Shown one piece after another: positions 7,136 through 32,000 of a stretch of DNA of 32,000 nt; the first letter of the stretch is position 1, and the number at the start of each line of letters is the position of its first letter. A program made the translations under genes and the position numbers. A model generated the notes under the pieces. That model made no database searches. It saw only the letters and a program-made list of their open reading frames with translations, and was not told the origin of the DNA. The stretch spans positions 900,001-932,000 of the forward strand of contig NZ_LT671858.1 in assembly GCF_900083515.1 (NCBI RefSeq), given 5' to 3'. The stretch is from Cuniculiplasma divulgatum. GTDB taxonomy: Archaea > Thermoplasmatota > Thermoplasmata > Thermoplasmatales > Thermoplasmataceae.

Positions 7136-7190
7136 AAAAATTCATTATATAGAATGATAATATTTTTAATCTTTAACATATTGGTTCATA

Positions 7191-8159: not shown

Positions 8160-8182
8160 AAATAATAGTAAGGAGGTTTTTC

Positions 8183-15101: not shown

Positions 15102-15157
15102 AATGGTTAAAAATTTGTTCACTCCAGTAGAGCCTTTACCTTTTATAAAAGGGGAGG

Positions 15158-16228
15158 TTAGTTTAAAGTAATACCTTCCGAAAGGATTTCCTGGTAGGTG
15201 TTAATAAATTCAGCTGCGATCTTTTCCGAAACCAATCCCATATTGCCCACTCTTAAAATTTTTCCATTAAGTTCACCCATTCCATTTGCTACCTCAATAT
15301 TTCGTTTTAACAGTTCAGCTCTTAATTTTGTTGCTGGAATAGAGGGCTCAAAGGCTATTACAGTGTCTGAATAATTTAACTCGTTTCCGTATATTTTTGA
15401 ACCTGATTCCTTGAGTTTTCCTCTTAAAAAAGATGCAATTTTAGCATGCCTTTGATTTCTTGCATCTATGGTCTCACTTTCCAGTTCATTCAATGCATTA
15501 TGTAATGCATTAAATGCACCGGTAGAAGGTGTAAATGCGGTTTCACCCTTATTAAGAAAATCAATTCCTATTTTAGCATCCAAATATTTTGGAATGTCAT
15601 TTGATTGAATTAAAGATTCATTTGCCTCTTTGCCTATAAAAACAATTCCAATACCTGGAACAGAGGCAATTCCTTTCTGACTACAGGAAGCCATTACATC
15701 TATACCCCATTCATTGATCTTCACCGGTAAACCTGCAAAACTTGAAACCCCATCGACTAAAACTTGCAATCCATTTTCCTTACTTTCTCTGACAACATTC
15801 TTAAGGTTCTTTATAGCAGTCCCATTTCCTGTTTCGTTATGAATTATGAAAATTGAACCTATTTCTCGATGAGATGAAACATAATCTGTTATTTCTCCGA
15901 CCTCTAAATGCTCACTAATAGATTTATTAATTCTATGAACCTTAAGTCCCCTCCTCTGGGAACTTTCAATCAGTCTATTTCCGAATTCTCCAAAGGTAAC
16001 TGCCAGTACATTATCCTTTGGCTTTGTAAATGAATAAATCATTGATTCAACTGCAAGTGTTCCTGACCCAGTGATCATTAGTGAATGTGTAGAATCTGAA
16101 AATTTATTAAGCAATTTTTCTGAATTTCTCACAATGTTCTTAAAGGACTCAGATCTGTGGTTGGTTACAAGCCTGGATGCTTCCATTGTCTTTTCTGACA
16201 CCTCTACAGGTCCTGGTATTAACATCAT
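15158..16228 (-). CDS. Class V pyridoxal-phosphate aminotransferase (phosphoserine / serine-pyruvate aminotransferase type)
   Basis: N-terminus LIPGPVEVSEKTMEA and PLP-lysine region SCSQKGIASVPGIG. 4-nt overlap with the upstream dehydrogenase gene. Confidence 0.85.
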   Translation of the reverse strand: MMLIPGPVEVSEKTMEASRLVTNHRSESFKNIVRNSEKLLNKFSDSTHSLMITGSGTLAVESMIYSFTKPKDNVLAVTFGEFGNRLIESSQRRGLKVHRINKSISEHLEVGEITDYVSSHREIGSIFIIHNETGNGTAIKNLKNVVRESKENGLQVLVDGVSSFAGLPVKINEWGIDVMASCSQKGIASVPGIGIVFIGKEANESLIQSNDIPKYLDAKIGIDFLNKGETAFTPSTGAFNALHNALNELESETIDARNQRHAKIASFLRGKLKESGSKIYGNELNYSDTVIAFEPSIPATKLRAELLKRNIEVANGMGELNGKILRVGNMGLVSEKIAAEFINTYQEILSEGITLN

Positions 16229-17223
16229 ATTCCCATCTCACTAATTTTGGCAAAAAGGTTATTCAATGTATATTCGGCCACACGTTTCTGTGCCTCAACT
16301 GTTTGTGCTCCTATGTGTGGTGTCACAATTACATTTGGTTTTGATATTAGAGTCTTTTCCCATTCTTCTGTAGGAGGTTCGTTCCAAAGCACATCTGTAG
16401 CATATCCCTTAATTCGACCACTCTCAAGATAATTTAGCAATACTCTTCCATCAATCACTTCAGATCTGCTTGTATTAATCAGGAAAGATCCACTCTTTAC
16501 CATTTTCATCTGTTCTTCGCCTATTATATTGGACGAGGAGTCGCTGAGAGTGACGAGGATGAAAATAAAATCTGAGTTTGAAAGAAGTTCGTTCATTGAA
16601 ACAAAGTGACCTCCCACTTCCTTAATGGCTTCTTGGTTTTCAAAAATATCGTAGGCTAAAATTTCCATACCAATAGATTTTAGTATTTTTGCAGTGCTCA
16701 GTCCTATCCTTCCAAAGCCTATTATGCCTGAAGTCTTTCCACTGAGTTCAAAGCCTGTATCCTTTATCCAAATTCCATTTTTAGAATTTATATCCAGAGG
16801 GATAAGATTTCTCGCAAGACTCACAGCCAAGGCAACATTTAATTCAGCCACAGAATGAGTAGAGGAACCTGCTGCAGTTATTACCTGAATGTTTCTGGAT
16901 TTAGCATACTTCGTATCTATGTTATCAACACCGATTCCAGCTCTGGCTATAATTTTAAGGTTTACAGCTTTCTCAAGAATATCCTGAGTTAATTTTGTTC
17001 TACTCCTTAAAATGACAATATCATATTTCTCAATTGAGTCCTTTAATTTCATTGAGGTAATTTCAGGTTCGTAATTAACATCAAATTCTCTTTTATTAAG
17101 TTCATCGAGCATCAAACTGTCCACCTTATCGCATATAAGAACTTTTTTTTTCTTGGTTATTCCTTTCATTGCTGAGGAATTGATGCTATGGTATATATGC
17201 TCTATGTGACCAAAAGAGTTCAT
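16225..17223 (-). CDS. serA: D-isomer-specific 2-hydroxyacid dehydrogenase, D-3-phosphoglycerate dehydrogenase type
   Basis: NAD fold GIIGFGRIGLSTAKIL and catalytic region VTPHIGAQT. The true start is probably Met19 (17169, MKGITKKKKVLICD). Operon partner of the aminotransferase. Confidence 0.85.
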   Translation of the reverse strand: MNSFGHIEHIYHSINSSAMKGITKKKKVLICDKVDSLMLDELNKREFDVNYEPEITSMKLKDSIEKYDIVILRSRTKLTQDILEKAVNLKIIARAGIGVDNIDTKYAKSRNIQVITAAGSSTHSVAELNVALAVSLARNLIPLDINSKNGIWIKDTGFELSGKTSGIIGFGRIGLSTAKILKSIGMEILAYDIFENQEAIKEVGGHFVSMNELLSNSDFIFILVTLSDSSSNIIGEEQMKMVKSGSFLINTSRSEVIDGRVLLNYLESGRIKGYATDVLWNEPPTEEWEKTLISKPNVIVTPHIGAQTVEAQKRVAEYTLNNLFAKISEMGI

Positions 17224-17252
17224 TATGACGAAAAATACCCTCTTTTTAAAAT

Positions 17253-18461
17253 TTACCTGTTAATGTTCATTACAATGCCAGAACAGACCTTAGGAAAGAA
17301 ATAGGTTGATTTTTGAGGTAGAAAGCCATTTTTCACTATGAGATTAAATAATTTTTCCTTATTCCAGGGAGGCATGACAAAAACGATTGAGCTCTCACCA
17401 GAATCTATCATCCTTTTACACTCTTTTATGTCGTGGGTATAATATATCATGGCATCTAATTCTTCATCTGATAAACCGAGTATTTCTTTTAGGACTACGT
17501 TTTGAATAAGATGTATAGCAGAAATTGCAGATATACCTCTCTTCTTTATCTTCTCCTGATCAATAATCATATTATCCTCTTGTGATAAAATAAGAACATT
17601 TTCATCCTTTGGTCCTTCTGAATCTGCTTTTACAGAATTACATACTGACCGTAAGTTGTTTAGTTTCTCATTATCAATTCTGCACTTCAAAGCCCTGTGA
17701 ATACCATTAATTAGGAGTGAATCTGAATCTATATTAGTTGTATACGCCATTATTGAAGACCAGAATACCTCATCATTTTTATTTGATGATTGAGCCATTT
17801 GCATTGTTGCAGCCAATCTGTGATGGCCATCTGCAACAATTGCCACATCAGTTTTTAGTATCTCCGAAATTGTATGAGAATCATTTAGTGGTATCTTAAA
17901 GATTTTGTATTTTACACTATCTGTATCAGTAAATTCTAACCATGGTTGTAGTTTACTGGAGAGGAGAATCAATTTCCGGTCAAACTGTTTGTTATTTACC
18001 ACAAGGAAAATCGGTTCGAGCTGTGCATTCGTATCCTTCAAAACTTTGACCCTATCGGAAACTTTACCAGGAAAGGTTTTTTCATGAGGCTGTAACAAAC
18101 CATCTTCTGGATATATATCTACAAGTGAAATAACTCCAAACCTTTCTCTAATCCTACCGTTAATCCAGGATTGTTGGTTAATTAAAATCATACCTGCTTC
18201 CTCCTTTTTTTTAAGTACGCCTGAATCAATCCATTTATCTATTAACATAGTACCCTGTGATTCTTTTTCTGGTAGAGTCAAGTGAGTTATGTTAAAGGGA
18301 AATGACTTCAATTCAGATTCTAATGATTTTGAGATTGAATCAAATGGTGGAGATATGGATTTTTCTACATTATCACAAAAATAATAAGGTTCAAATTCCC
18401 GAAGTCTGACCATTCTAACACTCCCTTTCAATAGAAGGATAGATTTCTTTAATGATTGCAC
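17253..18461 (-). CDS. DUF1015-family protein (ParB/Srx-like fold, function unknown)
   Basis: Signature IVADGHHRLAA, about 400 aa. The likely true start is MVRLREFEPYYF (18413). First gene of the serA-aminotransferase cluster. Confidence 0.75.
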   Translation of the reverse strand: MQSLKKSILLLKGSVRMVRLREFEPYYFCDNVEKSISPPFDSISKSLESELKSFPFNITHLTLPEKESQGTMLIDKWIDSGVLKKKEEAGMILINQQSWINGRIRERFGVISLVDIYPEDGLLQPHEKTFPGKVSDRVKVLKDTNAQLEPIFLVVNNKQFDRKLILLSSKLQPWLEFTDTDSVKYKIFKIPLNDSHTISEILKTDVAIVADGHHRLAATMQMAQSSNKNDEVFWSSIMAYTTNIDSDSLLINGIHRALKCRIDNEKLNNLRSVCNSVKADSEGPKDENVLILSQEDNMIIDQEKIKKRGISAISAIHLIQNVVLKEILGLSDEELDAMIYYTHDIKECKRMIDSGESSIVFVMPPWNKEKLFNLIVKNGFLPQKSTYFFPKVCSGIVMNINR

Positions 18462-18858
18462 TCTGAATATTTTGTTTCTTCATAACCTGAATCACATCCT
18501 CATACCAACTACCCACCATATAAATTTTGATTCGCAAATGGCAACATATTGAATACTAGTATTACTGCAAATTTAATATTCATACTTCAATTCTAAAACT
18601 TTAATGAAACATAGTCTCAGTCTTGTCAGAACGGGGTTATCTATTTTAATGGAAAGAATTAATTCGTCGAAATCTGTTCATAGATCGTTCTGCCATATTT
18701 CCATTGAACTAAATTATAAAAATGTAAATTAAGGTAACTGTCCATAAGGCGTTTCTCGCTCTATTTATAAAAAAATGAGGGGAAATAAGTTTATATGAAG
18801 TAACAACCTGACAGCCAATGACTTTAATACAATCAAGAAATGACATTATCTGTCAGTT

Positions 18859-19971
18859 ATGGATACAAAGAGAGTTTTTACCATAGGCGAAAAAATTAAA
18901 TCAACTCTTGAAAAAGAGGGACTGTATCAGCAGATAGAATATCCTGAACCATCACCGGATGATGGAAATATTTCTTATGGTTTAAGTTACCCTATAAAAG
19001 CCTTTGAGAAATTTCTGGGATATTATGATTCAGCTGAAAAGATTGCGTTTAATCCATCTATTTCATTCAACACAGATTTTTCCTTTTGTCTTTCTGCGTG
19101 TAAATATACAAAGACTGCAAAAACAGACTCTGTTGTTCTCGATGGTGTTACAAATGACAGCTATACCCTTAAGGCTACATCTGCGCTGCAGAGCTTCAAG
19201 AAAAAATTTAAGATAGAAGGAAGTTTTCAATTTTATCTAAAGAGATACAGGAAATATACTGAAGCAAAAGGAATGAGTGAATCCTCTGCGGTTGCCTCGG
19301 CAGCTTCAAGATCCCTGATTAACAATCTGTTTAACGAAAAGAAACCTGTCATGGATCATCTCACTTCAAGATTTGCACGACTTGTATCAGGATCAGGTAC
19401 AAGGGCAAGCATAGAAGGCCTGTCCATCTGGTTATCATATCCCGGTTTGGATAGTGACCAGTCCTTTGCAGTTAAGATCAGGGATAATCCAAAGGAAATT
19501 TATTATGGGATTTTTCCAAAAAGGAATTCCATAAAAACCGATCAGGCCCATAATAATGTAAAAAATTCAATCTTCTATGATACCTGGATATATGATAAGA
19601 TGGATGCTGTCAAGAATGCTACTGAGAATAATTTTAACACTTCGTTTCTCATAGAACGTGGTCAGAAGGATTCTTTGAACCTTCATTCAGTGCTCATTTC
19701 ATCTGGTATGTTCGCTCAAACCGGGGAAAGTATAGAATTGCTGAGAAAAATAATGAAGTTTCAATCTGATAGTGAAGGGATATATTTTAACGCCGATACT
19801 GGTCCTTCCATTATGATTTCCTCTCTTGATAGAAATTTAATTCTTGAATGCAAATCATATGTTAATGAGAATTTCCTTGAAGGTGGAATGAAGTACGATG
19901 ATCATGTTAAAAAAATGAACGACTTTAAAAAAGAGAGTGAGGCATATTTTAATTCAATAAGTAGAGAATAA
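18859..19971 (+). CDS. GHMP-superfamily protein of the diphosphomevalonate decarboxylase family (mevalonate 3-kinase or mevalonate-3,5-bisphosphate decarboxylase candidate)
   Basis: MDD-like N-terminal motif YPIKAFEKFLGYYDSAEKIAFNPSISF (compare IKYWGK...NxSIS). Degenerate GHMP motif II KGMSESSAVASAAS. Confidence 0.7.
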   Translation: MDTKRVFTIGEKIKSTLEKEGLYQQIEYPEPSPDDGNISYGLSYPIKAFEKFLGYYDSAEKIAFNPSISFNTDFSFCLSACKYTKTAKTDSVVLDGVTNDSYTLKATSALQSFKKKFKIEGSFQFYLKRYRKYTEAKGMSESSAVASAASRSLINNLFNEKKPVMDHLTSRFARLVSGSGTRASIEGLSIWLSYPGLDSDQSFAVKIRDNPKEIYYGIFPKRNSIKTDQAHNNVKNSIFYDTWIYDKMDAVKNATENNFNTSFLIERGQKDSLNLHSVLISSGMFAQTGESIELLRKIMKFQSDSEGIYFNADTGPSIMISSLDRNLILECKSYVNENFLEGGMKYDDHVKKMNDFKKESEAYFNSISRE

Positions 19972-20433
19972 TGTTAAATTAACGCATAAACTCGAAGCTC
20001 GCTTTAGCATTTAGAAAATGAGAGTATTAAACTATTACACATAGATAAGGCCGTAGATTTCATTTTTTTAGCCATAAGAAGTTCTAAAAAATGCATATTA
20101 GTTTACTACTCATTTGAAGAGTTATATAAGAATTAAATTTAAATAGCGATTGCTTTACTTTAAATAACAAATGGTTCAGCATGATTAAAATACCTGGAAT
20201 CGAACTTAATGAGTCCTTTTTTGGTGCAGGTATCAGGTTTCTTTGTGGGAGGTAAAATCAAAAATCGAAATAAATATCTGTGTTATATAGTTACTTGTGA
20301 AAAACACTATGTGTTAACAGTAAAGATTCGTAAAATATAATATTAGTCATATGGGTTTAAATTTATAATTATAATATATTTCTAAAGAGTTTTCTGGTAG
20401 GTGGTTTGATCACCATTTTTTTCACCTTGGAAA

Positions 20434-21162
20434 CTAGTACAATCCATAATCGTTATCAGATTTAGCATAATTTTGTGGATTGGTAAGAAGTTCATGACCA
20501 CTGTAGAAGAATAGAACTAAAAGAATGATAGCACTAAGAATAGAAAACAAAGAGTATAGATTAATGGAGTGGGCCTTTATTAGGTTTATAGCGGATTCAG
20601 CAGAAGACAAAGTTGTAATTGAGGATAAGGTAGCAAAGACAGTTTCCATTTCACCAATAAATCCGATTAATGTGAACGCAAGTGATGTTAAAAGGGCAGC
20701 GATAAGTAATTTAAACTTATTATTCTTAAAAAATTGGATGTTCAATAAGTAGTAGGAAATATAATATAAAAGCGAGGGGATAACCGTAATAATTACTGTA
20801 TTTACTATAAGGGAGGAAATAACACCGTCAGGTATGTTTCCAGATGGATATTCCGTTACTATTGAAAAAGCAACCGATACAACATAGATAGTAGCGCCTA
20901 AAATTGCTATTATTGCAAATAGTATATAAATGCTAATTCCGTTAATTAAATGTCTTCTAAAATCATGTTTAAGTGACTTTCTTGATACTATTACAATTAC
21001 AAGACCAGCGAAGCCTATTAAAATTGAAATATATGAAAGGAAACTGATTTCAGTTAGAACACTTATTATGCTTATCAAAAAAGTAAGGCTGAATAGTATG
21101 TACGCATATCCAACGTTTCTAACTCCCTCATTTCTCAAATTATTTGATTGTTCTGGATTCAC
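20434..21162 (-). CDS. Hypothetical polytopic membrane protein
   Basis: 242-aa ORF with about 6 long hydrophobic segments. No recognisable motif. Confidence 0.55.
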   Translation of the reverse strand: MNPEQSNNLRNEGVRNVGYAYILFSLTFLISIISVLTEISFLSYISILIGFAGLVIVIVSRKSLKHDFRRHLINGISIYILFAIIAILGATIYVVSVAFSIVTEYPSGNIPDGVISSLIVNTVIITVIPSLLYYISYYLLNIQFFKNNKFKLLIAALLTSLAFTLIGFIGEMETVFATLSSITTLSSAESAINLIKAHSINLYSLFSILSAIILLVLFFYSGHELLTNPQNYAKSDNDYGLY

Positions 21163-21336
21163 TTATTATTAATGTATTATATATAATAAATATTTTGGTG
21201 TTGAATATCCTTAGTATGAAAACTGTTACAAATAGATGATTGAATCGTCTATTATATTTTTCCTGCAGTCATTAAATATTATAATACTTGGAGATAAAGA
21301 TAAGTATAAGTTATTACATTTAAGACTGGGAAAAAA

Positions 21337-21987
21337 GTGATAAGACCAAATCCCTATAGAAATGAAGGTGACCCAGACATCAACTTTATTATGGCCGGTG
21401 CTGTTGAATTTAATCCTTCCCCGATTCTTCTTAAGAAAATCAGAATGAACAAAATAGAGGGCTTCTTTTTTGGATTATTTTTTACTTTCCTGAGTATCTT
21501 TATTTCCATACTTACTTCCAATATATATTATCTATTTCTTGCCTTAATCCTATTTGGATTGAGTTTTTCTTCAGTTGGGCTGGTTTATATACATTCAGAA
21601 TTGATGTTCAGTCAGAAATATGTTATTAATGCCTATGGACTTGGGCTGATACGTGGGGAAAAAATATATTATTATCATTCATTTAACCAGTTACAATCCT
21701 CAATTATCGTGCACACTGTGAAGGGGAATCTTGATTATTATTCTGTTTTCTTTTTGCCCATTGATTTGAAATTAAAATTACCAGGGAATTTAGATCAAAT
21801 AAGTCTTGAAATGCTAAAGAATCTATTACATGAAGCACGAAAAAACAGTGATAATAGATTTACTTTGAAAACATTAAAGCGTTACTACACTTTTCCTTAT
21901 CTAGATTTGAATTTGGCCATAGAAGTTAGGAAGTATTATATCAGGATGTATGAAGGCTGGTCAGTGCCTTACAAATATTTTACCTGA
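21337..21987 (+). CDS. Hypothetical membrane-anchored protein (TM hairpin + soluble C-terminal domain)
   Basis: Two adjacent TM helices (FFFGLFFTFLSIFISILT / YYLFLALILFGLSFSSVGLVYI) are followed by about 130 soluble residues. GTG start; the alternative is Met19. Confidence 0.5.
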   Translation: MIRPNPYRNEGDPDINFIMAGAVEFNPSPILLKKIRMNKIEGFFFGLFFTFLSIFISILTSNIYYLFLALILFGLSFSSVGLVYIHSELMFSQKYVINAYGLGLIRGEKIYYYHSFNQLQSSIIVHTVKGNLDYYSVFFLPIDLKLKLPGNLDQISLEMLKNLLHEARKNSDNRFTLKTLKRYYTFPYLDLNLAIEVRKYYIRMYEGWSVPYKYFT

Positions 21988-22002
21988 AATTGTATAACAA
22001 AT

Positions 22003-22419
22003 TCAGATATCTTCAACGGTCTTAGCAGTTATATCCAGTTCAACAGCAGCCTTAGAAATCCTCTGGCTATCTGTAATTAGAATGAGCTTATTTTCCTTTG
22101 CAGCCCACAAATAACTTACTTCCTTAAAATTAAGTTTTTTGTAAATTGCAATGTTTAGCATTGTTTTAAAATCATCCCAGAGAACAGGGACGATTTCTAC
22201 ACTTTTGAGTATATCAATAAGGTCATCACCAAGAGATGTAATTCTTGCTTTTTCATCTTCCGCTTCTTCCATTGAGCACCTGTTAGAAATCAGATCTCCA
22301 ATCTCACTGTAACATGACTCTATGATACAGGAATTTTCTATAAAATCAATTGCACTATCAGGCTTTATTAAAAAAATTTTAATAAGTGATGCCCCATCAA
22401 TTAGGTATTTCTTTTCCAT
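22003..22419 (-). CDS. vapC: PIN-domain toxin (VapC-like)
   Basis: N-terminal beta1 acidic residue (KYLIDGASL) and C-terminal LILITDSQRISKAA motif. 138 aa. Begins 2 nt after the stop of a ribbon-helix-helix gene. Confidence 0.65.
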   Translation of the reverse strand: MEKKYLIDGASLIKIFLIKPDSAIDFIENSCIIESCYSEIGDLISNRCSMEEAEDEKARITSLGDDLIDILKSVEIVPVLWDDFKTMLNIAIYKKLNFKEVSYLWAAKENKLILITDSQRISKAAVELDITAKTVEDI

Positions 22420-22421
22420 TC

Positions 22422-22646
22422 CTATTTATCCCTCTTTGCGTTTTTATTTACCATAAGGAAATCACTGGGTGACTCATTCCTGAACCTCTCTGACAGATCC
22501 CTTATTTTTTTGACCAGAATTTCTCTTTGGATACTTGATACCTCCTCTTCCAGGGATTTTCTTATAACTTCTGACAGGTTAACATTGAGCCTTTTTAATT
22601 CCTCATATAAGCTATCATCGATCCTAACACTTATAATTTGAGTCAT
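22422..22646 (-). CDS. vapB: Ribbon-helix-helix (CopG/VapB-like) antitoxin
   Basis: The N-terminus IISVRIDDSLYEELKRL is a typical RHH strand-helix. 74 aa, immediately upstream of the PIN gene. Confidence 0.65.
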   Translation of the reverse strand: MTQIISVRIDDSLYEELKRLNVNLSEVIRKSLEEEVSSIQREILVKKIRDLSERFRNESPSDFLMVNKNAKRDK

Positions 22647-22656
22647 CGTTTTTTGT

Positions 22657-22670
22657 ATACGTAATACGTA
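22657..22670. promoter_or_regulatory. Tandem ATACGTA ATACGTA (two TACGTA palindromes) just upstream of vapB; candidate autoregulatory operator
   Basis: Exact 7-mer duplication 11-24 nt upstream of the vapB start codon. RHH antitoxins typically bind repeated or palindromic sites in their own promoter. Confidence 0.25.
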
Positions 22671-22798
22671 CTTTAACGTTGTTAAACGTCATTTCTTTGT
22701 TAATATTTTTAACAGATAACTAAAAACTGTTTCTAAGGCCTGATAATTTATGAAGAATCTAGTTAGTAATGGACTGGATATATGTTAGTTGTATGTGT

Positions 22799-24094
22799 CT
22801 ATATAATTGCTATTATTCCAAAGATCGGGACGAAAATTAGACTTGACCAGTAGGCCATTTCTCTTATACCAGATGAAGAATATTCTCTCATGATGTTTCT
22901 GTTTCTTGCTATCATCCCCATTAGTACACCCGGACCTATAAGCACAAAGACAAATATCACGAGAAGATAAAGAACGCTACTAATTAGATAGGATTTTGGT
23001 AGAATCAGAGCTATAATTACAGCAGGCAGACTTTCCATAATATATATCAAGGATGATTTTTCCCTCCCTATTCCCAGTGCTTCCATGAACCCCCATGCAC
23101 TGCCCATAGATATGACGACAAGAACTAAAAAAGCGGCTCCTATGAGACCAATACCAAATCAATAGGGTGAATATACGCCGGCAATGGCAGTTAAGCCACC
23201 AGCCAGCTGGGATATTGACGCAAAATTCATATTTGGGCCAATACCACTCATCACCATTTCCACTACTACCATTAACATTTCTGATACTACTGCTCCAAGA
23301 AGCGTTTCAAGTCTCATTGATTTCATAGCAGTTTTTGTAAATTTGTCTCTCACTATATTGCTATTGATTTCCGTGCTATTATTGATCTGAAACTTCTTCC
23401 TGGTGTGAATAACCTTTTCTGCTGTTGCTGATGCCTGAAAAAAGAGCATAAATGGCATTATGACTGCGTCAACATTTACAGCTAGCATAAATAGAAATGT
23501 TGGAGATGGGACAAAATACAGTGGACTATATGGCTCTATTCCTCGAACTGTAAGTGCAGCAATGAAGGCAACAATTAGCATACCTGAAATTACGAGAAGA
23601 ATGGATTCAGTTAGTCCATACTTTCTGTGTATGACCACTGCTATATGAATCACATAAAAAACTGGCAGCGAAAACAGTATGGGGATATTGAATAGAGATA
23701 ATCCTACTGCAATTCCAAGATATTCAATAACATACGTAACAATGTCGGTTAGGACCATTGGAACTGTTGCAATCAAGGTAAGTGAGTGCGAATAATTATT
23801 CCTGATTACCTCCCCTAACCCCATTTCAGTAGCAACTCCAATTCTGCCGGAACTTTCCTGGACTAAATAAAGTGGGATTACCAGAACAATAGTAAACCAT
23901 ATTAATCCGTACTTGAATAATGCACCCGTTTCAGCAGCTCCAAGCGTGCTGCTGGCATCCATGTCGGCTATCATAACCAGCCATGCTGGCCCAAAAAATT
24001 TAAAAATATTTCTTACTCTTATCATGTGACTCATTTTACCAGCCAGGGATAAGAGAAATCTGGATAATCCCAGAGAAATATTGATCAAGCACAA
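22799..24094 (-). pseudogene. Nramp/MntH-family divalent metal transporter interrupted by one in-frame TGA
   Basis: The ORF 23159-24094 (FGPAWLVMIADMDASSTLGAAETGALFKYGLIW, Nramp TM1 region) ends ...AGVYSPY-TGA. The same frame continues FGIGLIGAAFLVLVVIS into ORF 22799-23107 (MGSAWGFMEALGIG..., Nramp MEGF-like region). The joined length of about 431 codons matches full-length Nramp. The likely true start is MSHMIRV (24034). Confidence 0.85.
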
Positions 24095-24197
24095 GTATGA
24101 TTGTCATTTTATCACGTAAGGACTCCCTTACAGTATAGGGCAATACTTAAGTTTTCCTTAATTAAAAAATTTTTCATATGCAGAGGAAAGAATTTGA

Positions 24198-25217
24198 TTA
24201 CTCTGACATAATCTCTGAATGTTCGGTGAAATTTTGTTTTTCGCTTTGAAGAACATATAATATGAATTCCATAATGATACCTATGAGCACTAATATGGCC
24301 AGAAAAGTAAAAAAATATGACAAATCATCAAAGAATTGAACATGATATATTTCTGACATTGAATAGTAACCGATAGAATCAACCCCTAAAGGAAATAATG
24401 CTCCCCATGATGAAATTTTATATTTTTTATTAAACAATCCATTTTTAATTTTTACAATAAATACAATGAACATGAACAGAGCTATGAAGATTGAAGCTAT
24501 TATATCAACGGTTGCCATATAATGAAAAATATAACCTATTGTCATTTGGATAATATCATATACGGGAGTTCCCAATATTGAATATCCAAGTAGTGAAAGA
24601 ATTCCAGAATAAATCATGTAATAACCATTTATATCTTGAATATGCACTGGTCTTTTATGGTTGTATATCAACGAATAAGTAATGACTAAAATAGTACCTA
24701 TTTGTGATATTATTACCAGAAGAAACTCTAAACTTACGAAAATGAATGGAATCTGATTCTGTGTAACACCGATCAAAATGGAAAAACTCAAGAAAGAAAT
24801 AAGAGGCAAAAACAGCAAATAGTTTTCCTTTTCTTTATTATGAAAATTAAGTGTAAGCAGATATAATGAAATAAACAATATTGTAACTCCAAGCAAGACA
24901 ATAACAATGACCAAGGGGTATATGGATATGTGAGATTCATATAGTCGAGTGAACAGTACTGAGGTACCAGCTATGAATGTAAATGCCTGCATTACAGTTT
25001 TAGAGCTATATTTAAATATGTTACCCTTTAAGAGAAATAATTTCAATAAAAAGGATCCTATTAAACCAATATATATGGATATAGATAAAAACATTAATAA
25101 ATAAGAAAGAGCCATCATTCCGAGATGAAAAAGAGCATCTGATAGTATACCTGTTCCCATTACCGAAGCAAAGGAAGAATTTGGTAATGTTGAAAGATTT
25201 TTTTTAAATCCTTTCAT
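24198..25217 (-). CDS. TDT-family (TehA/Mae1/Ssu1-like) anion transporter
   Basis: About 10 TMS in 339 aa. The N-terminal FASVMGTGILS motif is characteristic of the tellurite-resistance/dicarboxylate transporter family. Confidence 0.6.
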   Translation of the reverse strand: MKGFKKNLSTLPNSSFASVMGTGILSDALFHLGMMALSYLLMFLSISIYIGLIGSFLLKLFLLKGNIFKYSSKTVMQAFTFIAGTSVLFTRLYESHISIYPLVIVIVLLGVTILFISLYLLTLNFHNKEKENYLLFLPLISFLSFSILIGVTQNQIPFIFVSLEFLLVIISQIGTILVITYSLIYNHKRPVHIQDINGYYMIYSGILSLLGYSILGTPVYDIIQMTIGYIFHYMATVDIIASIFIALFMFIVFIVKIKNGLFNKKYKISSWGALFPLGVDSIGYYSMSEIYHVQFFDDLSYFFTFLAILVLIGIIMEFILYVLQSEKQNFTEHSEIMSE

Positions 25218-25340
25218 TATGTTAAGATATCACAGAAGTTGTTATAAGACTTCTTTATTAGGTACTAAAAATATGAAGGCATGTTGTATATAAAAATTTT
25301 AATAGCTATTGAAACAACAATTTATAAATATGAATCTAAT

Positions 25341-25352
25341 AATCTTAAGATT
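25341..25352. promoter_or_regulatory. Perfect 12-bp palindrome AATCTTAAGATT nested in inverted repeat TGAATCT-N9-AGATTCA, downstream of a TTTATAAATA box
   Basis: Read directly from the sequence. The TATA-like box is at 25321-25330 and the palindrome at 25341-25352, 49-60 nt upstream of the first paralog start (25401). Confidence 0.3.
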
Positions 25353-25400
25353 CAGAATTATATCATAGTATAACTAAGTTGAATTTGCAGGATTGATAAT

Positions 25401-26339
25401 TTGCGTATAGAGAAGTTAAACTGGAAAAACTGGAAAAAGTGTACCATTGCAATAAAGGTAGATAGTGGTATTTTTAAACTTCTTGGGAGTAATATGGGTA
25501 AGATTCAGGCCTTTGTCTTTAATGAAGGAATGAAATCATTCGTGCAGCTTTATTTTGATGATAAAACGATAAGTTCAGGGGGAATCAGCAGAATTCTATC
25601 CAGAAAGGACGTTGTAAGATCAGATGGTTATATTTCCATATCAGAGGAACTGCAATCTTCAGATGCTGCAAAACTTATTTTTGATCTTACTGAGATGCCC
25701 TCTGTTCTAATAGAACAAACATATGTTATAGGTAATGAGATTTATTTTATCTTCCGCTTTCACAATTCATTTCTCTCTAAAATAAGCAGTTTGCTTACCG
25801 ATTATATCGCAGAAGATCTGAAGGTTAGGATAGTCGAGCTAGTGAATGCAGACAGTATAATAGACGCAGTAAATAATATTAAAAAAAATACAGAGGTATT
25901 GGTGGTTCAGATATCCACTCTCATAACCAAAGGGAGGAGTACGCTTGAATTTGTTAGGAGTAACTATCCGGATATTCTATCAATGCCTGAAACGAGAAGC
26001 CGTGACGACAATGGCTATAGAGTGATAATATTCTCCAAAAAAGAGCTCAACATGAAAGGTATGAATCCTATTTCGTTAAAAGAAGGACTGTACGAGGGGA
26101 GGCTGATTGACCCATATCTAGTTAAAAAGAGAAAGCTAACAAATGATTCGAGAATACCAAGATTTGGAGCGTTTTATTATATTAATGAAAACAGGTTAGT
26201 TGATACTACATTTATACCAAAAGAAATGGCACAAAACTATATTAGAACATACTTTGAGGCCATTGGTGACCTGGATACTTACAAAGCTATAATAGAGGTT
26301 TTCTCGGAGGCAAATGACGAAGTTTGGAAGCAGATTTAA
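25401..26339 (+). CDS. Uncharacterised protein, paralog 1 of a tandem triplet (312 aa)
   Basis: A TTG start is required because the N-terminus aligns with paralog 3 before the first ATG (KCTIAIKVDSGIFKLL vs RCLISIRGEDEIFEIM). Shared family motifs are PSV..., F(R/K)(F/Y)H, V(V/L)Q(I/T)S, RIPR and a C-terminal (V/I)W. Confidence 0.75.
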   Translation: MRIEKLNWKNWKKCTIAIKVDSGIFKLLGSNMGKIQAFVFNEGMKSFVQLYFDDKTISSGGISRILSRKDVVRSDGYISISEELQSSDAAKLIFDLTEMPSVLIEQTYVIGNEIYFIFRFHNSFLSKISSLLTDYIAEDLKVRIVELVNADSIIDAVNNIKKNTEVLVVQISTLITKGRSTLEFVRSNYPDILSMPETRSRDDNGYRVIIFSKKELNMKGMNPISLKEGLYEGRLIDPYLVKKRKLTNDSRIPRFGAFYYINENRLVDTTFIPKEMAQNYIRTYFEAIGDLDTYKAIIEVFSEANDEVWKQI

Positions 26340-26379
26340 GGAGATTTATAGTTGAACTTCAGTGAAAGGAGGTTTTGGT

Positions 26380-27318
26380 ATGGACTTCAGTCTTATGGAT
26401 GGAAAAGTTGAGTGTGGCGTTAGCTTAAGCATTAAGTTAAAGGGTGAATTATTCAATCTCATGAAAAATGCTGATGAAAGGATAGAGACATTTCTTTATG
26501 AGGATCACGAAGAACTTTTCATCAATCTTTATTTTAGCAAGTTTTCAAACAATTTGGGAAAATATAACTTCATCCTATCTCATAGAAACTTAAAGGAATC
26601 TGAATCATTTTTTACAATATCTGCAAAAATAGAGAATCCAACTCATTTTGATTTCGTGAAGAAAATTCTAAATTTTCCATCTGTAATTGTAGCCGGAACT
26701 TTCATGAAGCGGGATACTCTTTTCATACTGTACAGGTATCACGAAAATTATAAAGAAGAGATGAACTCATTACTGAATCTTTATATTGTGGAGCATGAAG
26801 GTATTGCAATTTCAGAAATAAGGAAATCCTATTCATTTAGAGACAGGATGATGAGAATTAATAAATTGTTCCCACTTGCAGTTTTGCAAACCTCAAGTAA
26901 ATACATTTCCAATAAACTGATCTCCTATATTTACAAGAATTCACCAGGATTTGTGGCAGAATTAGAAGGGAGAGGACTTACATCAGATGGAGTCAGGGCC
27001 TTAATATATTCTAATAGGAATTTGAATTTCAAAGGATTGATCGAGATTTCCAGAAATCAAAATATTTACGAGGCAAGGCATTATGAAAGTCTTTTTGTGG
27101 AAAGAAGAAGACTTGCCAATATGGAACGAATCCCAAGGATCGCCATTCTGTTTAGTGTTAAGGATGATAGAGCCTATATAACTTCGTTCCTGCCAGTGGA
27201 GGAAATGGATAACTATATGAGGATCTATTCAAAAACAGTAAATAAGGAATCAAGTTATGAACCTAACATTGAAGTGCTTTCTAAAATGAGGGAGGATATA
27301 TGGAACTGGCTGGAATAA
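26380..27318 (+). CDS. Uncharacterised protein, paralog 2 of the tandem triplet (312 aa from ATG 26380; ORF open from GTG 26362)
   Basis: GGAGG lies 8 nt upstream of ATG 26380. This start gives exactly the same length as paralogs 1 and 3. C-terminus RIPRIAILFSVKDDRAYITSFLPVEEMDNYMRIYSK... aligns with paralog 3 RIPRLATMLELKNGRLFNTTIVPSENSDEYIGIYSK... Confidence 0.75.
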   Translation: MDFSLMDGKVECGVSLSIKLKGELFNLMKNADERIETFLYEDHEELFINLYFSKFSNNLGKYNFILSHRNLKESESFFTISAKIENPTHFDFVKKILNFPSVIVAGTFMKRDTLFILYRYHENYKEEMNSLLNLYIVEHEGIAISEIRKSYSFRDRMMRINKLFPLAVLQTSSKYISNKLISYIYKNSPGFVAELEGRGLTSDGVRALIYSNRNLNFKGLIEISRNQNIYEARHYESLFVERRRLANMERIPRIAILFSVKDDRAYITSFLPVEEMDNYMRIYSKTVNKESSYEPNIEVLSKMREDIWNWLE

Positions 27319-27390
27319 TCGGGAGTAAATTTGGGGAATATTTCACTTATATTCTGTATGGCGAGATGTTTCATTTGTGGGTGAGATAGT

Positions 27391-28329
27391 ATGAACTTCA
27401 ACACAATTGATCATAAGATTGATCGCAGATGTTTAATCAGTATTCGTGGAGAAGATGAGATATTTGAAATAATGAAGGAAAATATGCAAAAATATAATGT
27501 TTTTCTATATAAAAATGAGGGTAAAATGTTCCTACAGGTTTACATTGAAAAGAAGTCTTTTGCTCCCAGATTTTTTTCAATGATCAAACTTATATCAACA
27601 TTCAGGGAAACTGAAAATTATTACAGCGTAATGGTGGATATTACAGAAAACAGTGGTGTTGGAATTATAAAAGAACTTCTTTCTATTAGATCAATTACAC
27701 TTGGTGAAACCTATCTTCTTGGAAATAGGATATATCTCACTTTCAAGTATCATCATGATTATTCAATTTCTCTTACAACAACACTTATAAAATGGATCGA
27801 TAGGAAAGAAAATATTCGGTTAGAAAACATCAGGCATTCCAGAACTTTTATTGAAGGGATGACTCTCCTGGTTAAATCCCTACCACTTACAGTAATACAG
27901 ACATCTACCATAATGCCTGAGGGTCATGGACCGCTCTATGAAATTGCCAGACAATATCCTGAAACAGTAACAGAAGTAGACGTCCGAAGTATGTCAATCA
28001 CATCGATAAAATGCCTATCCTATGCACAGCAGAAAATAGAAATTCCTGATATAAGTACAGTTTCAAATAGAGATTTTATTTATGAAACTATTGAACTGTC
28101 TGGTAGCCTTATGGATCGTGTTTTGAAACTAAACGAACTGAGGATACCAAGGCTGGCGACAATGCTTGAACTTAAGAATGGAAGACTGTTTAATACAACA
28201 ATTGTTCCTTCAGAAAATTCTGATGAATATATAGGTATTTACAGCAAATTTATGAAGAATGTATCACAGTATGATCCACGTATTGAAATATACAGCAATA
28301 TAAATGAAAAAGTGTGGTCGATGCTATAA
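27391..28329 (+). CDS. Uncharacterised protein, paralog 3 of the tandem triplet (312 aa)
   Basis: ATG is preceded by GGTGA (anti-SD complementary) at -8 nt. Colinear similarity to paralogs 1 and 2 along the full length. Confidence 0.75.
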   Translation: MNFNTIDHKIDRRCLISIRGEDEIFEIMKENMQKYNVFLYKNEGKMFLQVYIEKKSFAPRFFSMIKLISTFRETENYYSVMVDITENSGVGIIKELLSIRSITLGETYLLGNRIYLTFKYHHDYSISLTTTLIKWIDRKENIRLENIRHSRTFIEGMTLLVKSLPLTVIQTSTIMPEGHGPLYEIARQYPETVTEVDVRSMSITSIKCLSYAQQKIEIPDISTVSNRDFIYETIELSGSLMDRVLKLNELRIPRLATMLELKNGRLFNTTIVPSENSDEYIGIYSKFMKNVSQYDPRIEIYSNINEKVWSML

Positions 28330-28413
28330 CAACTATTGGTATGATTGCACTGTAAGTTCTTTATTTTATTTAATGGTAGGAAAATATATTATACTATTAT
28401 ATTGTGTTATTTT

Positions 28414-30195
28414 GTGAACAATTCATTATTTTATACTAACAACCTTGGGAGTCTTGAATTAAATTACGTAATAGATGAACTCAGAAGAAACTATGCACTT
28501 AAATACAGAGACCAGCCAGATATTAAACAGACTAACGCATGGAAGGGAAGCATTAAGGCATTAAAACAGTACATAAATCCAGGAACATGGGTATTTATGG
28601 AGTACGGTTTCCCCATAGGTTTGGAGAGGGTAGATTTTTTGATTGCCAGAAAGGGTCATGCATTTATTGTGGAATCCAAGGGATGGAATAACTACAGGAA
28701 AATTAATGAAATAGTCTCAATGGGAGATAATCAGGAAGTTGTCAATCCATGCTACCAGATGGAGAATTATGTTGCAAAGATGAGAAATTTTCACACTTCA
28801 TCCAGCTTGATTTCCTTTGATGGTTTCGTTTATATGTATAATACAAAGGATGGGAAAGAATGCAAAATTCTGTATAATGGCAGAGAGGTTGAAAGTGAAT
28901 TACAAATACTTCCTGTGGAAGTTTCCTCACAAGAAGAGGTGGATGCCATTGAGAACGGCACATTTAGAACAAGCAGAGAATTGATCGATTTTATTTCCGC
29001 AAATAGAGATCATATAATGGAAGATGTATCAAGAAAATTCCTGAATGCTGGATTTGGTCTTTCAGAGGAACAGGCAATAATAGTAGAAAAAATAATGAAT
29101 AGTATCAGGAAAGGAGAGAAAAAGAAGTATTTCATAAGCGGAGGAATGGGTTCGGGAAAAACACTTATGGCCATAAACCTTCTATTCATGGCATTAAGTG
29201 AAGGATATCAGGCACTTCTTGCTTATAGAAATAACAGGCTCATCAATACGTTAAGAAGGGTATTCGGTCCATCATATTCGTCATTGCTGTGCTTTTATTC
29301 CATGGGATTCAATGGACACTTTAAGGGTCTGGGCGAGGAAAACTTTGATCCTGAAAGACTTCAGCTTCAGAAACTACTTATATATGATGAGGCACAGCGT
29401 ATGACTATGGATGTAATTAGGAAGACTCTATCCTATGATAAAACTTCAGTTTATTTCTTTGACGAGAATCAAATTTTGATTGATGATGAATCTGGTGGAA
29501 AGGCTGTATTCAAATCTGAAGCTGAAAGATCAGGCACTGAGTTTGAATTCATATCCTTGAGCGGTTTTTTTAGGATGATAGACGGTGATAAATATGGTAG
29601 TTTTGTTGATGGTCTTTTCTCTAAAAGTAATTATTCTAATCCTGGTGAATATGACCTGAGACTGTTTGACAACATTAATAATATGATTGATGACCTGAAA
29701 CGTAAAGAGGAGAACGGGAATACAAGAATAGCCTTACTTGCATCATACACATTCAGTGATGGCAGGAAGGAAAAGAGGAGAGTTATTAATCCTGAAATAA
29801 AGTGGCTTATGGATCCAAAGACAGAGTACCCACAGTACTGGATGGGAATCCATGAAAACCCTTTCAAATACTGTGCTTCAATATATGGTTCCCAGGGATT
29901 TGAAACAGATTATGTTGGTCTGATATGGGGTGAGGACCTTGTGTGGAGAGGTAAATGGGTTGTGCAGCCAGAAAAAATTACCGATACAATAGGTGGGAGA
30001 TCATCATTAAAAAGTGTTTGCAGAAACAACCCTGACAGGGGAAGGGAGATGCTATTCAATAGATACAGGATTTTACTTACAAGAGGAATGAAAGGTACTT
30101 CTGTTTATTTTGAGGATAGGGAAACATATGAGCATGTAAGATCAATTTTGAGTCAGAGTGTTAACATTGTGTCATCCAGAGGGATTATAAAATAG
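28414..30195 (+). CDS. PD-(D/E)xK nuclease-like N-terminal domain fused to a DUF2075 / Schlafen-group-3-type P-loop helicase
   Basis: N-terminus TNAWKGSIKALKQYI ... ERVDFLIARKGHAFIVESKGW (D-x12-E-x-K). Walker A FISGGMGSGKTLMA, Walker B LLIYDEAQRM and C-terminal ILLTRGMKGTSVYF. The ORF is open from TTG 28345. I prefer GTG 28414 because an AAAATATATTATA box is centred about 27 nt upstream. TTG 28402 is also possible. Confidence 0.8.
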   Translation: MNNSLFYTNNLGSLELNYVIDELRRNYALKYRDQPDIKQTNAWKGSIKALKQYINPGTWVFMEYGFPIGLERVDFLIARKGHAFIVESKGWNNYRKINEIVSMGDNQEVVNPCYQMENYVAKMRNFHTSSSLISFDGFVYMYNTKDGKECKILYNGREVESELQILPVEVSSQEEVDAIENGTFRTSRELIDFISANRDHIMEDVSRKFLNAGFGLSEEQAIIVEKIMNSIRKGEKKKYFISGGMGSGKTLMAINLLFMALSEGYQALLAYRNNRLINTLRRVFGPSYSSLLCFYSMGFNGHFKGLGEENFDPERLQLQKLLIYDEAQRMTMDVIRKTLSYDKTSVYFFDENQILIDDESGGKAVFKSEAERSGTEFEFISLSGFFRMIDGDKYGSFVDGLFSKSNYSNPGEYDLRLFDNINNMIDDLKRKEENGNTRIALLASYTFSDGRKEKRRVINPEIKWLMDPKTEYPQYWMGIHENPFKYCASIYGSQGFETDYVGLIWGEDLVWRGKWVVQPEKITDTIGGRSSLKSVCRNNPDRGREMLFNRYRILLTRGMKGTSVYFEDRETYEHVRSILSQSVNIVSSRGIIK

Positions 30196-30521
30196 GAAAA
30201 ATTTCTTTTTAAAACAAGTGAGATTGCGAACAAGGTTAAGCAATTTAGATCAAACTTGAAAATTACAGATGAAGATGACCTGCCAAATGATATTAAAAAA
30301 AATATACACTCATCTGATAAAAATAAGGAAAAGAATATATTATGGATTATGCTGAGTAAACCTATAGTACCTAAGGCCTACTGTGTGGTTTTTCTAAACT
30401 ATATTGAGTATGCAAGAAGAACTGATGATAATTCTAAAGCTCAAAAAGGGAAATTTAATCAACCTTTCTCAGTCTAATAATTTTTAGTGATTCTTTAAAA
30501 GGCCATTTAGACTTAATGATA

Positions 30522-31046
30522 TTATTTTGGGAAGTATTCTCCTTTCTCAAGTATTACCTTTAATGGAACATTAACCGTACTTGACCCAATATTTACCTGT
30601 AGTATTCGCGTAGTCAGATTACTTAGAAAAGGTTTTATAATATCTTCATTTTTAAAGACTAAAACGTATTCGAACTCTACATTTAGACCTAGGTTTAACA
30701 GATTGTTCAATCCTAGTTTGCCTTCTTCTATCTTTTTCCCTAAAAAAAGATCAATGGTTGGTTGAAGTTTACCTTTGATTCTATTTATTAGTTGTTTCAA
30801 TTGATTATCCTTAAGAGAAGCGTTAACTCCTTTCATTTCGAATATAATGACTTTATTTTTCTTACTTCGATAAATTAGAGCTAGATCAGCATGTGGGGTA
30901 CTTTTCCCAAAACAGACCTCCTCCAGGTTCATAAGAGATACAAAGTTTTCTACCTTTTTAATTGTAACACTACAATTACAGTCCTTAAAATTAGTTGAAT
31001 AAGATCTTGCGTCATGATTTAATGTTCCACTCATAATTTCAATCAC
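30522..31046 (-). CDS. Small PD-(D/E)xK-like (Hjc/restriction-endonuclease-fold) hypothetical protein
   Basis: Motif HADLALIYRSKKNKVIIFEMKG (D-x15-E-x-K) in predicted strand context. 174 aa from GTG 31046, or 170 aa from ATG 31034. It lies 93 nt downstream of the ATPase gene on the same strand. Confidence 0.55.
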   Translation of the reverse strand: MIEIMSGTLNHDARSYSTNFKDCNCSVTIKKVENFVSLMNLEEVCFGKSTPHADLALIYRSKKNKVIIFEMKGVNASLKDNQLKQLINRIKGKLQPTIDLFLGKKIEEGKLGLNNLLNLGLNVEFEYVLVFKNEDIIKPFLSNLTTRILQVNIGSSTVNVPLKVILEKGEYFPK

Positions 31047-31139
31047 TCATCATTCTGTTCCTTCTACTAAGGTTACTGTCCAGTCTAGCAACTTCATAAG
31101 AACTTCATCTGTTATACCTGGTATTCCATTCTCAAACTC

Positions 31140-32000
31140 CTAGAGATTAATTTTCTTTACCCCCTTTATCCTATCAACAAAGTATGAATCAAATTCACAT
31201 TCCTGTAAAGATTTGGAAACCTGTTTGGCCAAGTCACTTATTTCAATCTTATCACTCCCTTTTCTTTCAACATTCATTACATTGTCAATTAAAGTCTGTA
31301 TCTTTTCTGGATTCGGTTTATACTTGTGGAGTAAATAAAAAACCTGACCTATGATGCTACTATGAGTCGAAAATACAATTCTTTTTCCCATTGAAGACAA
31401 TACAATCAGCGTTAGTGCCATTATAACTTGAGATGAAGGATGTAATTGAGATTCAGGTTCCTCTATTATTAGTAGTCCATTCTTCATAGACTTCGCCAGA
31501 AGGAGTATACCAGACACCTCACTAGCCATTGCTGAAGCGTATTTTAGATCGACCTTAACATTCATATTGTCCGTATAAAACAAACGTTTTGTTAGTTCAT
31601 CATATGATAAGTTACCTTGAAGAACTGTGAATGTATCAAATGGGAAATCTTTTTCGATGGAAACCATCTTCTCTGAAAAATCTATCCAATCAATAAAAGC
31701 CCTATATATGTACTCTGTAGAATCGTACAATAAATCATTATTTTCAAAGATGTTATAATTCTTAAAATAGCGATGAGAAATAATAAGAGGGGTTTTTCCA
31801 AAAGGTACAAAACGAACTTCACTAATGCTTGAAGAGAATTCTATTAAGGAATGCATATGAGCTAGGAAATAATCTACCATTGCCATAGAAATGCTCTTTG
31901 AGAAAGCTTTCGGAATCTCCCTAATCTCAAATAGACTGTATTTCGAAATTTTAACATTTCTAACTTGTGATACTATGCTTTTCGTCAATTGATTTAAGTT
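31140..32000 (-). CDS. ABC/AAA_21-AAA_15-type ATPase (OLD/Septu/Gabija-class ATPase fold), C-terminal part; N-terminus outside window
   Basis: Walker B/D-loop NGLLIIEEPESQLHPSSQ, signature-like ASEVSGILLLAKS and H-loop VFSTHSSIIG. The reading frame stays open to base 32000, so the Walker A region lies beyond the window. Confidence 0.8.
   Translation of the reverse strand, partial: NLNQLTKSIVSQVRNVKISKYSLFEIREIPKAFSKSISMAMVDYFLAHMHSLIEFSSSISEVRFVPFGKTPLIISHRYFKNYNIFENNDLLYDSTEYIYRAFIDWIDFSEKMVSIEKDFPFDTFTVLQGNLSYDELTKRLFYTDNMNVKVDLKYASAMASEVSGILLLAKSMKNGLLIIEEPESQLHPSSQVIMALTLIVLSSMGKRIVFSTHSSIIGQVFYLLHKYKPNPEKIQTLIDNVMNVERKGSDKIEISDLAKQVSKSLQECEFDSYFVDRIKGVKKINL

Follow-up and report, generated by a model that had tools for sequence, protein, structure and literature searches.

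A 32,000-nucleotide (nt) window of the genome of Cuniculiplasma divulgatum strain S5 (NCBI RefSeq assembly GCF_900083515.1, contig NZ_LT671858.1, positions 900,001 to 932,000 of the forward strand) contains a tandem array of three genes, here designated A, B and C, that all encode full-length members of the described Pfam family PF19020 (Ta1207 family), for which one structure has been solved. In window coordinates, gene A (array position 1) spans 25401–26339 and begins with TTG, gene B (position 2) spans 26380–27318 and gene C (position 3) spans 27391–28329, the latter two beginning with ATG. All three lie on the plus strand and each encodes a protein of 312 amino acids (aa). With somewhat better than an even chance of being correct, the locus is read here as an anciently triplicated tandem array whose products are specialized, functional paralogues that would reside in oligomeric, perhaps non-enzymatic particles of the cytosol.

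The gene boundaries are those of the initial annotation, which had placed the starts at TTG 25401, ATG 26380 and ATG 27391 and had noted that the proteins are then equal in length; the reading frames with these starts are indeed 312 aa each. The longest mechanically derived open reading frame (ORF) of B opens upstream at GTG 26362, but ATG 26380 is favoured because a GGAGG sequence sits 8 nt before it. Pairwise BLASTP comparison gives 26% identity between A and B (E-value 7e-45, 1 gap), 23% between A and C (E-value 1e-39, 0 gaps) and 27% between B and C (E-value 1e-43, 1 gap). The estimate, originally made by eye, that the colinear proteins share about a quarter of their residues agrees with these values (23–27%, with 0–1 internal gaps), and the similarity stands: the limit set for an insignificant relationship (pairwise E-values above 0.01) is missed by some 40 orders of magnitude. 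The three-way alignment contains one 1-residue deletion in B, which is offset by one extra residue at the C-terminus of the same protein. Over the last 60 residues the three pairs are 28, 30 and 38% identical, compared to 21–25% in the remainder, so that the rise to about 40% described for this region holds for B and C (38%) and not for the other two pairs. No DNA-level repeats were found among A, B and C, and the copies have therefore not undergone recent gene conversion. Protein A is identical to the C. divulgatum hypothetical protein P0001, and word-indexed protein searches return close relatives only.

The PF19020 model (277 positions, gathering cut-off 26.3 bits) is matched over nearly its whole length by A (143.1 bits, E-value 1.2e-41, profile positions 1–275), B (112.7 bits, E-value 2.1e-32, positions 4–275) and C (99.5 bits, E-value 2.2e-28, positions 1–274). 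Searches of NCBIfam, PADLOC and PHROG did not provide a match to any of the three proteins. All copies are intact and their hidden Markov model (HMM) scores are similar, at 269–292 bits. An AlphaFold2 model of A, the copy that was modelled at full length, was built from a 90-sequence alignment and has a predicted local distance difference test score (pLDDT) of 93.3 and a predicted TM-score (pTM) of 0.91. The one real match of this model provided by Foldseek within the PDB is 5m86_A (E-value 5e-15, TM-score 0.79, 317 columns, 10% identity), with the title 'Crystal structure of the Thermoplasma acidophilum protein Ta1207', and all other matches in the PDB list for this model have TM-scores below 0.25. 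When the N-terminal half of A is modelled alone (pLDDT 88.8), 5m86_A is again the sole real match (TM-score 0.76, root-mean-square deviation 3.0), and neither the full-length model nor the half model of A matches any PDB chain other than 5M86 above a TM-score of 0.35. The family profile also finds the sequence of 5m86_A (E-value 3e-10). The PDB entry itself consists of 10 identical chains.

The secondary structure of the model of A is composed of beta-alpha-beta-beta-alpha-beta modules at residues ~8–76, 75–151 and 226–312, with a different insert at 150–228. Repeated alpha/beta modules had been anticipated in the initial annotation, and as predicted structure they are present as three modules and an insert, whereas the sequence evidence for a repeat is suggestive only. 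In an internal-repeat test of sub-profiles by hhalign, P-values of 0.0025 (m1–m2), 0.0023 (m1–m4) and 0.055 (m2–m4) were obtained with probabilities below 6%, and the sequence profiles are thus only suggestive of an internal duplication within the protein.

An exhaustive search of 1.84 billion (1.84e9) cluster representatives with a profile HMM of A, B and C identifies only 183 proteins at an E-value of 1e-3 or lower, 96 of these at 1e-10 or lower. The taxonomic and copy-number census covers 12 contigs and 30 clusters, and the named members in the 30 clusters all belong to the Thermoplasmatota, including Cuniculiplasma. Single-copy relatives are common, as had been considered possible at the outset, but the variable length expected to accompany them is not seen: 100 of the 150 best representatives are 300–320 aa long, and shorter family members look like fragments. 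One apparent member, P0089 (1361 aa, 13 'stretches'), was rejected as a low-complexity false positive. Pattern scans of genomes and metagenomes using alignments A1 and A5 found no new related locus.

The positions most conserved across the family are, in the numbering of A, F118-R119-F120-H121, P100-S101-V102, E195, S225, Y231-E232, I252-P253-R254 and P273. A, B and C agree at most of these, including H121, S101, S225, Y231-E232, I252-P253-R254 and P273. Substitutions at conserved sites occur in single copies, with A carrying Met in place of a family Glu, B carrying Tyr for Phe118, and C carrying Arg instead of Pro100 and Lys instead of Arg119. The [FY][RK][FY]H and PS[VI] motifs (the latter with the Arg of C), IYE, RIPR and a C-terminal W are retained in all three proteins. 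Most of the conserved islands listed initially, among them [PR]S[VI]xxxxT[YF], [LV]xVxQ[IT]S, IYE and RIPR, are present as described, and others require amendment. The motif given as F[RK][FY]H reads YRYH in B, the Cys of the N-terminal strand is in register in A and C only, and in the place of the C-terminal Y..Y[SF]K and Y.P.IE patterns A reads Y..YFE and Y.A.IE.

Colinearity to this degree is unusual even within the family, where pairs at 20–30% identity have about 7 internal gaps. Among 6854 family pairs below 30% identity, only 0.6% lack gaps altogether and 2.2% have no more than 1 internal gap. The near-gapless pairs cluster in a subclade that holds the array positions together with a clade of singletons ('D'), and orthologues of position 3 align with C without gaps at 31–35% identity. 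A tightly constrained fold, as had been proposed from the sequence, is supported. The strict colinearity is real, but it is a trait of a subclade that includes singletons and not a signature of the tandem set, since the singleton clade is equally colinear.

The same array is found in relatives of strain S5. C. divulgatum PM4 (L012) encodes three copies of 312, 312 and 312 aa with spacers as in the window except between B and C, and the metagenome-assembled genome clean327 (L003), at ~70% aa identity, also has three copies. A more distant metagenomic lineage (L007) contains three copies in a syntenic place, near genes for DUF1015, 2-hydroxyacid dehydrogenase and aminotransferase proteins. Two relatives of L007 differ at the middle position. 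In L015, positions 1 and 3 flank a remnant of position 2, and in L016 just positions 1 and 3 are present, separated by 37 nt, with position 2 cleanly absent. The remnant in L015 (5017–5760 of that contig, ~740 nt) is decayed and N-terminally truncated, being split into ORFs of 83 and 109 aa that match HMM positions 160–311 (E-value 5e-9, 22 bits).

In a neighbour-joining tree and a BLAST score matrix, the best outside match of B is position 2 of L007 (179–187 bits), and C pairs with position 3 of L007 and L015 (L007_3, L015_3) and with L016_2 (183–219 bits). Position 1 of L007 has its best Cuniculiplasma match in A (141 versus 97–99 bits). Clear orthologues of positions 2 and 3 are thus present in the distant triplet, and the triplication is therefore older than the divergence of these lineages. 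Between S5 and PM4, Nei–Gojobori ratios of nonsynonymous to synonymous divergence (dN/dS) are 0.134 for A, 0.113 for B and 0.131 for C, there are no indels, and the synonymous divergence (dS) of the array genes is 0.7–0.9. All three copies are kept by purifying selection in Cuniculiplasma, and the middle copy is dispensable elsewhere. The view expressed in the initial annotation that this is not a recent duplication is upheld by the orthologues of positions 2 and 3 in a distant triplet and by the dS between strains, and the dN/dS comparison suggested there places each copy under purifying selection at 0.11–0.13.

Members of the family also occur outside of such arrays. C. divulgatum encodes at least one fourth paralogue elsewhere in its genome, beside genes for a formamidase and amino-acid permeases, and other singletons occupy unrelated contexts; permeases, formamidase, histidine ammonia-lyase and TenA are among the genes near the singletons as a whole. 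No neighbour conserved across Ta1207 loci was found among the loci examined. In a distant clade, the L017 locus encodes a 319-aa single Ta1207 protein (6509–7468) followed by a 657-aa fused double-Ta1207 protein (7642–9615; P0137/P0278), so that a single copy and a fusion place three Ta1207 units in a row. The second unit of the 654–657-aa fusion is very divergent (HMM positions 92–284, E-value 4e-8). Near-identical versions of the fusion, 22 cluster members in all, come from many independent assemblies, and it is considered real because of this recurrence. The fusion speaks in favour of co-assembly of Ta1207 units, some form of which it leaves plausible.

The three genes are probably translated from one transcript. 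A TATA-box-like element, TTTATAAATA (25321–25330, plus strand), is located ~70 nt upstream of A and is a putative promoter element read from the sequence; the array of PM4 has the same element in front of it, and in L003 it takes the form TTTATAAGTA. Each gene is preceded by a Shine-Dalgarno-like element on the plus strand. That of A is purine-rich (25390–25396, ggattga) and reads ggggatga in PM4 and ggtggata in L003, at an equal distance from the conserved TTG. The GGAGG of B noted above lies at 26368–26372 and is conserved in PM4 and L003, and a GGTGA (27380–27384) precedes ATG 27391 as part of a GGTGAGA that is likewise conserved in both. No oligo-T run is found between A, B and C in the window strain, and an oligo-T tract, ttctttattttattt (28357–28371, plus strand), begins ~30 nt past the stop codon of C and may mark the end of the array transcript. 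A single A-B-C transcript is proposed because of the upstream TATA-like element, the Shine-Dalgarno-like element of each gene, the lack of internal oligo-T runs and the oligo-T tract after C. An AT-rich, TATA-like stretch at 28381–28404 then follows the tract, ahead of a GTG codon at 28414.

Together, these observations are most consistent with an array in which A, B and C are specialized and functional, and neither redundant nor decaying, because conserved polar positions are kept and purifying selection acts on all three. In this model A, B and C would be expressed from one transcript, and each gene would produce a soluble, cytosolic alpha/beta protein of ~36 kDa with a fold so far seen only in Ta1207 (5M86). 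By analogy with Ta1207, for which there are the ten identical chains of the crystal entry and a reported pentamer, the proteins may act as subunits of ring-shaped cytosolic particles that are homo-oligomeric or possibly mixed. Positions 1 and 3 would form the conserved core of the array, with position 2 dispensable in some lineages. As a guess, such a particle would be confined to the Thermoplasmatales and would serve as a scaffold or bind a ligand without being an enzyme. Homology, the fold, the age of the array, the selection on it and its varying copy number are demonstrated, and the oligomeric state, the operon and the function are inferences.

Several observations weigh against parts of this reading. 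The oligomeric state is drawn by analogy from a homologue that is only ~10% identical, and Ta1207 itself lacks the near-invariant His, having VRFIS in the place of FRFH, so the conserved FRFH site may not be universal in the family. Protein A is approximately equidistant from several clades, and its orthology to position 1 of L007, L015 and L016 is one-directional only. The spacer between B and C in PM4 (11916–11994 of L012, corresponding to 27316–27393 of the window) is unrelated to that of S5 and is both T-rich and AT-rich. It may serve as a terminator and promoter, in which case C would have its own promoter in PM4 and the operon structure would differ between the strains.

A stricter form of assembly is conceivable but rather doubtful, in which A, B and C would belong to a single mixed particle as subunits that cannot replace one another, with colinearity kept for the sake of quasi-equivalence. 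Consistent with this are the tight, co-oriented array with its Shine-Dalgarno-like elements, the persistence of the triplet over genus-level divergence, with purifying selection on every copy, the exceptional colinearity itself and, as indirect evidence of the Rosetta-stone type, the fused protein beside a single copy that again makes three units in a distant clade. The paralogues do not always co-occur, however, as position 2 has decayed in L015 and is missing from L016, and singletons are frequent, including the fourth paralogue of this genome, with a singleton clade that is as colinear as the array. Entry 5M86 contains identical chains only. Ta1207 is reportedly a pentamer (2017 paper in Acta Cryst F), and a 1:1:1 stoichiometry would not fit the ring if it is pentameric. 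The 'non-redundant subunits' of a single complex put forward in the initial annotation are thus not supported as stated, given the loss or decay of position 2, the common singletons and the homomeric crystal structure. A looser variant, which we offer tentatively and likewise think improbable, is a previously unrecognized, cytosolic mixed Ta1207 ring specific to the Thermoplasmatales in which positions 1 and 3 co-assemble, position 2 is optional and the fusions are a covalent version of the same arrangement. If this were true, the Ta1207 family would be a lineage-specific modular ring system and not a set of unrelated homo-oligomers.

Less probable still is the suggestion that the proteins are small-molecule-sensing regulators built of ACT-like repeats, with paralogues that differ in their ligand. 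The string of beta-alpha-beta-beta-alpha-beta units would be in keeping with such a role, the weak tail of the Foldseek results is rich in aspartokinase ACT regulatory domains, other ACT proteins and ferredoxin-fold designs, and singletons are located near genes for permeases, formamidase, histidine ammonia-lyase and TenA. Against it, A, B and C have no match in the Pfam ACT clan even at an E-value of 1 or lower, the ACT matches have TM-scores of at most 0.35 and probabilities of mostly 0.1–0.6 compared to a TM-score of 0.76–0.79 for 5M86, and no neighbour is conserved across loci. The best structures of the ACT type (3l76, 2nyi, 3tvi, 3c1n and 2re1) have TM-scores of 0.19–0.32 and E-values of 1e-3 to 0.1. 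The ACT hypothesis was rejected at the fold level (TM-score of at most 0.35), and membership of the ACT clan is not supported by profile or by structure.

The array is followed on the plus strand by a gene encoding a helicase with an SLFN-g3/DUF2075 domain (28414–30195; PF09848, E-value 1.7e-57) that had been called from TTG 28345. The start is probably GTG 28414, which would give a product of 593 aa as in PM4; the reading from TTG 28345 crosses the AT-rich, promoter-like stretch. A match to the NERD domain is weak and sub-threshold (E-value 0.0029, 18.5 bits versus a cut-off of 22.1 bits), and among PADLOC models the helicase matches PDC-S41 (2e-21) and Nhi/AbiO (1e-13). The helicase is treated as a separate unit because it follows the array in the Cuniculiplasma lineage only and has an apparent promoter of its own, and it is a candidate stand-alone defence gene.

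That the triplet and this helicase form an anti-virus defence cassette is very unlikely. The helicase does follow the triplet in three genomes of the Cuniculiplasma lineage (S5, PM4 and L003) and matches the PDC-S41, Nhi and AbiO models, the tract has ~82% nt identity between strains against a genome-wide 98.8%, and strain-specific genes, encoding an AAA_15/AAA_21 ATPase and a small protein with very weak nuclease-domain matches, are found after 30117. However, A, B and C themselves have no match in PADLOC (0 families at an E-value of 1 or lower) or PHROG and no plasmid or viral-structure match, the array occurs without the helicase in L007, L015, L016 and L017, the oligo-T tract and TATA-like stretch lie between C and the helicase, and the dN/dS values of 0.11–0.13 give no sign of diversifying selection. 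An origin of the array from a virus or plasmid was also rejected, with no PHROG match, no BFVD match above a TM-score of 0.21 and no plasmid match by tblastn. A recent duplication, or a set of redundant or decaying copies, is favoured by the tandem arrangement only and can be given practically no credence in view of the 23–27% identity, the lack of DNA-level repeats, the orthologues of individual positions in distant lineages and three intact copies with similar HMM scores (269–292 bits) and a dN/dS of ~0.12.

The low identity between strains extends well beyond the array. The genomes of S5 and PM4 have an average nucleotide identity of 98.8% (PMC5155288), and window positions 14500–17000 are 97–99% identical to PM4, whereas ~17000–30117 is 75–92% identical at the nt level. 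This divergent tract holds the genes for a DUF1015 protein and an MVD-like protein, the Ta1207 triplet and the helicase, and dS relative to PM4 is 0.5–1.1 within it, compared to 0.05–0.09 in the flanking genes. With a dN/dS of ~0.12 at a dS of 0.7–0.9, the pattern looks more like an old allele that recombination has brought in than like diversifying selection.

The surrounding genes exhibit further differences between strains. The region 30118–32000 has no counterpart in PM4 or L003 and contains genes at 30522–31046 and 31140–31988 (minus strand). A 282-aa ORF in this region matches only the C-terminal part of AAA_15/AAA_21, as well as AriA, OLD, GajA, PD-T4-4 and similar PADLOC models, and no N-terminal Walker A region can be seen in it; a 174-aa ORF has very weak VRR-NUC/HSDR_N-like matches. 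The region may be a small strain-specific defence module. To the left of the array, an Nramp transporter gene (22799–24094, minus strand) is split by an in-frame TGA (stop at 23159–23161), where PM4 has TTA (Leu) and an intact 411-aa gene. The split appears to be a nonsense mutation or sequencing error and not a frameshift, since the remainder can be aligned in a single frame, with 94.6% aa identity. Between this gene and the array lies a gene for an anion channel of the SLAC1/TDT family (24198–25217, minus strand), and the segment 24175–25126 is seen as a strain-specific insertion because PM4 and clean327 both lack it at this place. The ORFs at 22003–22419 and 22422–22646 (minus strand) comprise a 74-aa ORF with a weak CcdA-like match and an adjoining 138-aa ORF without a Pfam match, and possibly encode a toxin-antitoxin pair; the two are a conserved left neighbour of the array in Cuniculiplasma, L003, L015 and L016.

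Ta1207 has been an orphan fold, represented by one crystal structure and found only in wall-less, extremely acidophilic archaea. The analysis shows the occurrence of the family in old, selectively maintained tandem arrays, a subclade with almost no indels along 312 residues at ~25% identity, and the fused double protein, and no description of such a three-gene Ta1207 array was found in the literature. The array, the scarcity of indels and the fusion lead to testable hypotheses on assembly as homo-oligomeric or mixed rings. Nothing in the locus lies outside of known categories, no established concept is changed and the genes are already annotated with their Pfam family.

Among known systems, the closest is Ta1207 itself, which like A, B and C is a member of PF19020 and comes from the same taxonomic order (Thermoplasmatales), has the fold of the model of A (TM-score 0.79) and is of the same size class, with 321–333 residues compared to 312; neither has an assigned function. 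Ta1207 differs in being ~10% identical in the structural alignment, in falling outside of the best 150 relatives, and in the VRFIS sequence that leaves it without the near-invariant His, whereas A, B and C are part of a 312-aa subclade with hardly any indels and of a conserved three-gene array. The regulatory domains of ACT proteins and aspartokinases share repeated beta-alpha-beta-beta-alpha-beta units with A, but at TM-scores of at most 0.35 the packing of their modules is different. Paralogous subunits also build the rings of Thermoplasma-type complexes such as the thermosome (alpha/beta) and the proteasome (alpha/beta). Like these, A, B and C are anciently diverged and conserved in length and could hold quasi-equivalent positions in a ring; the thermosome and proteasome subunits have no homology to them, however, and some relatives do without one paralogue of the Ta1207 array, with singletons being common in the family.

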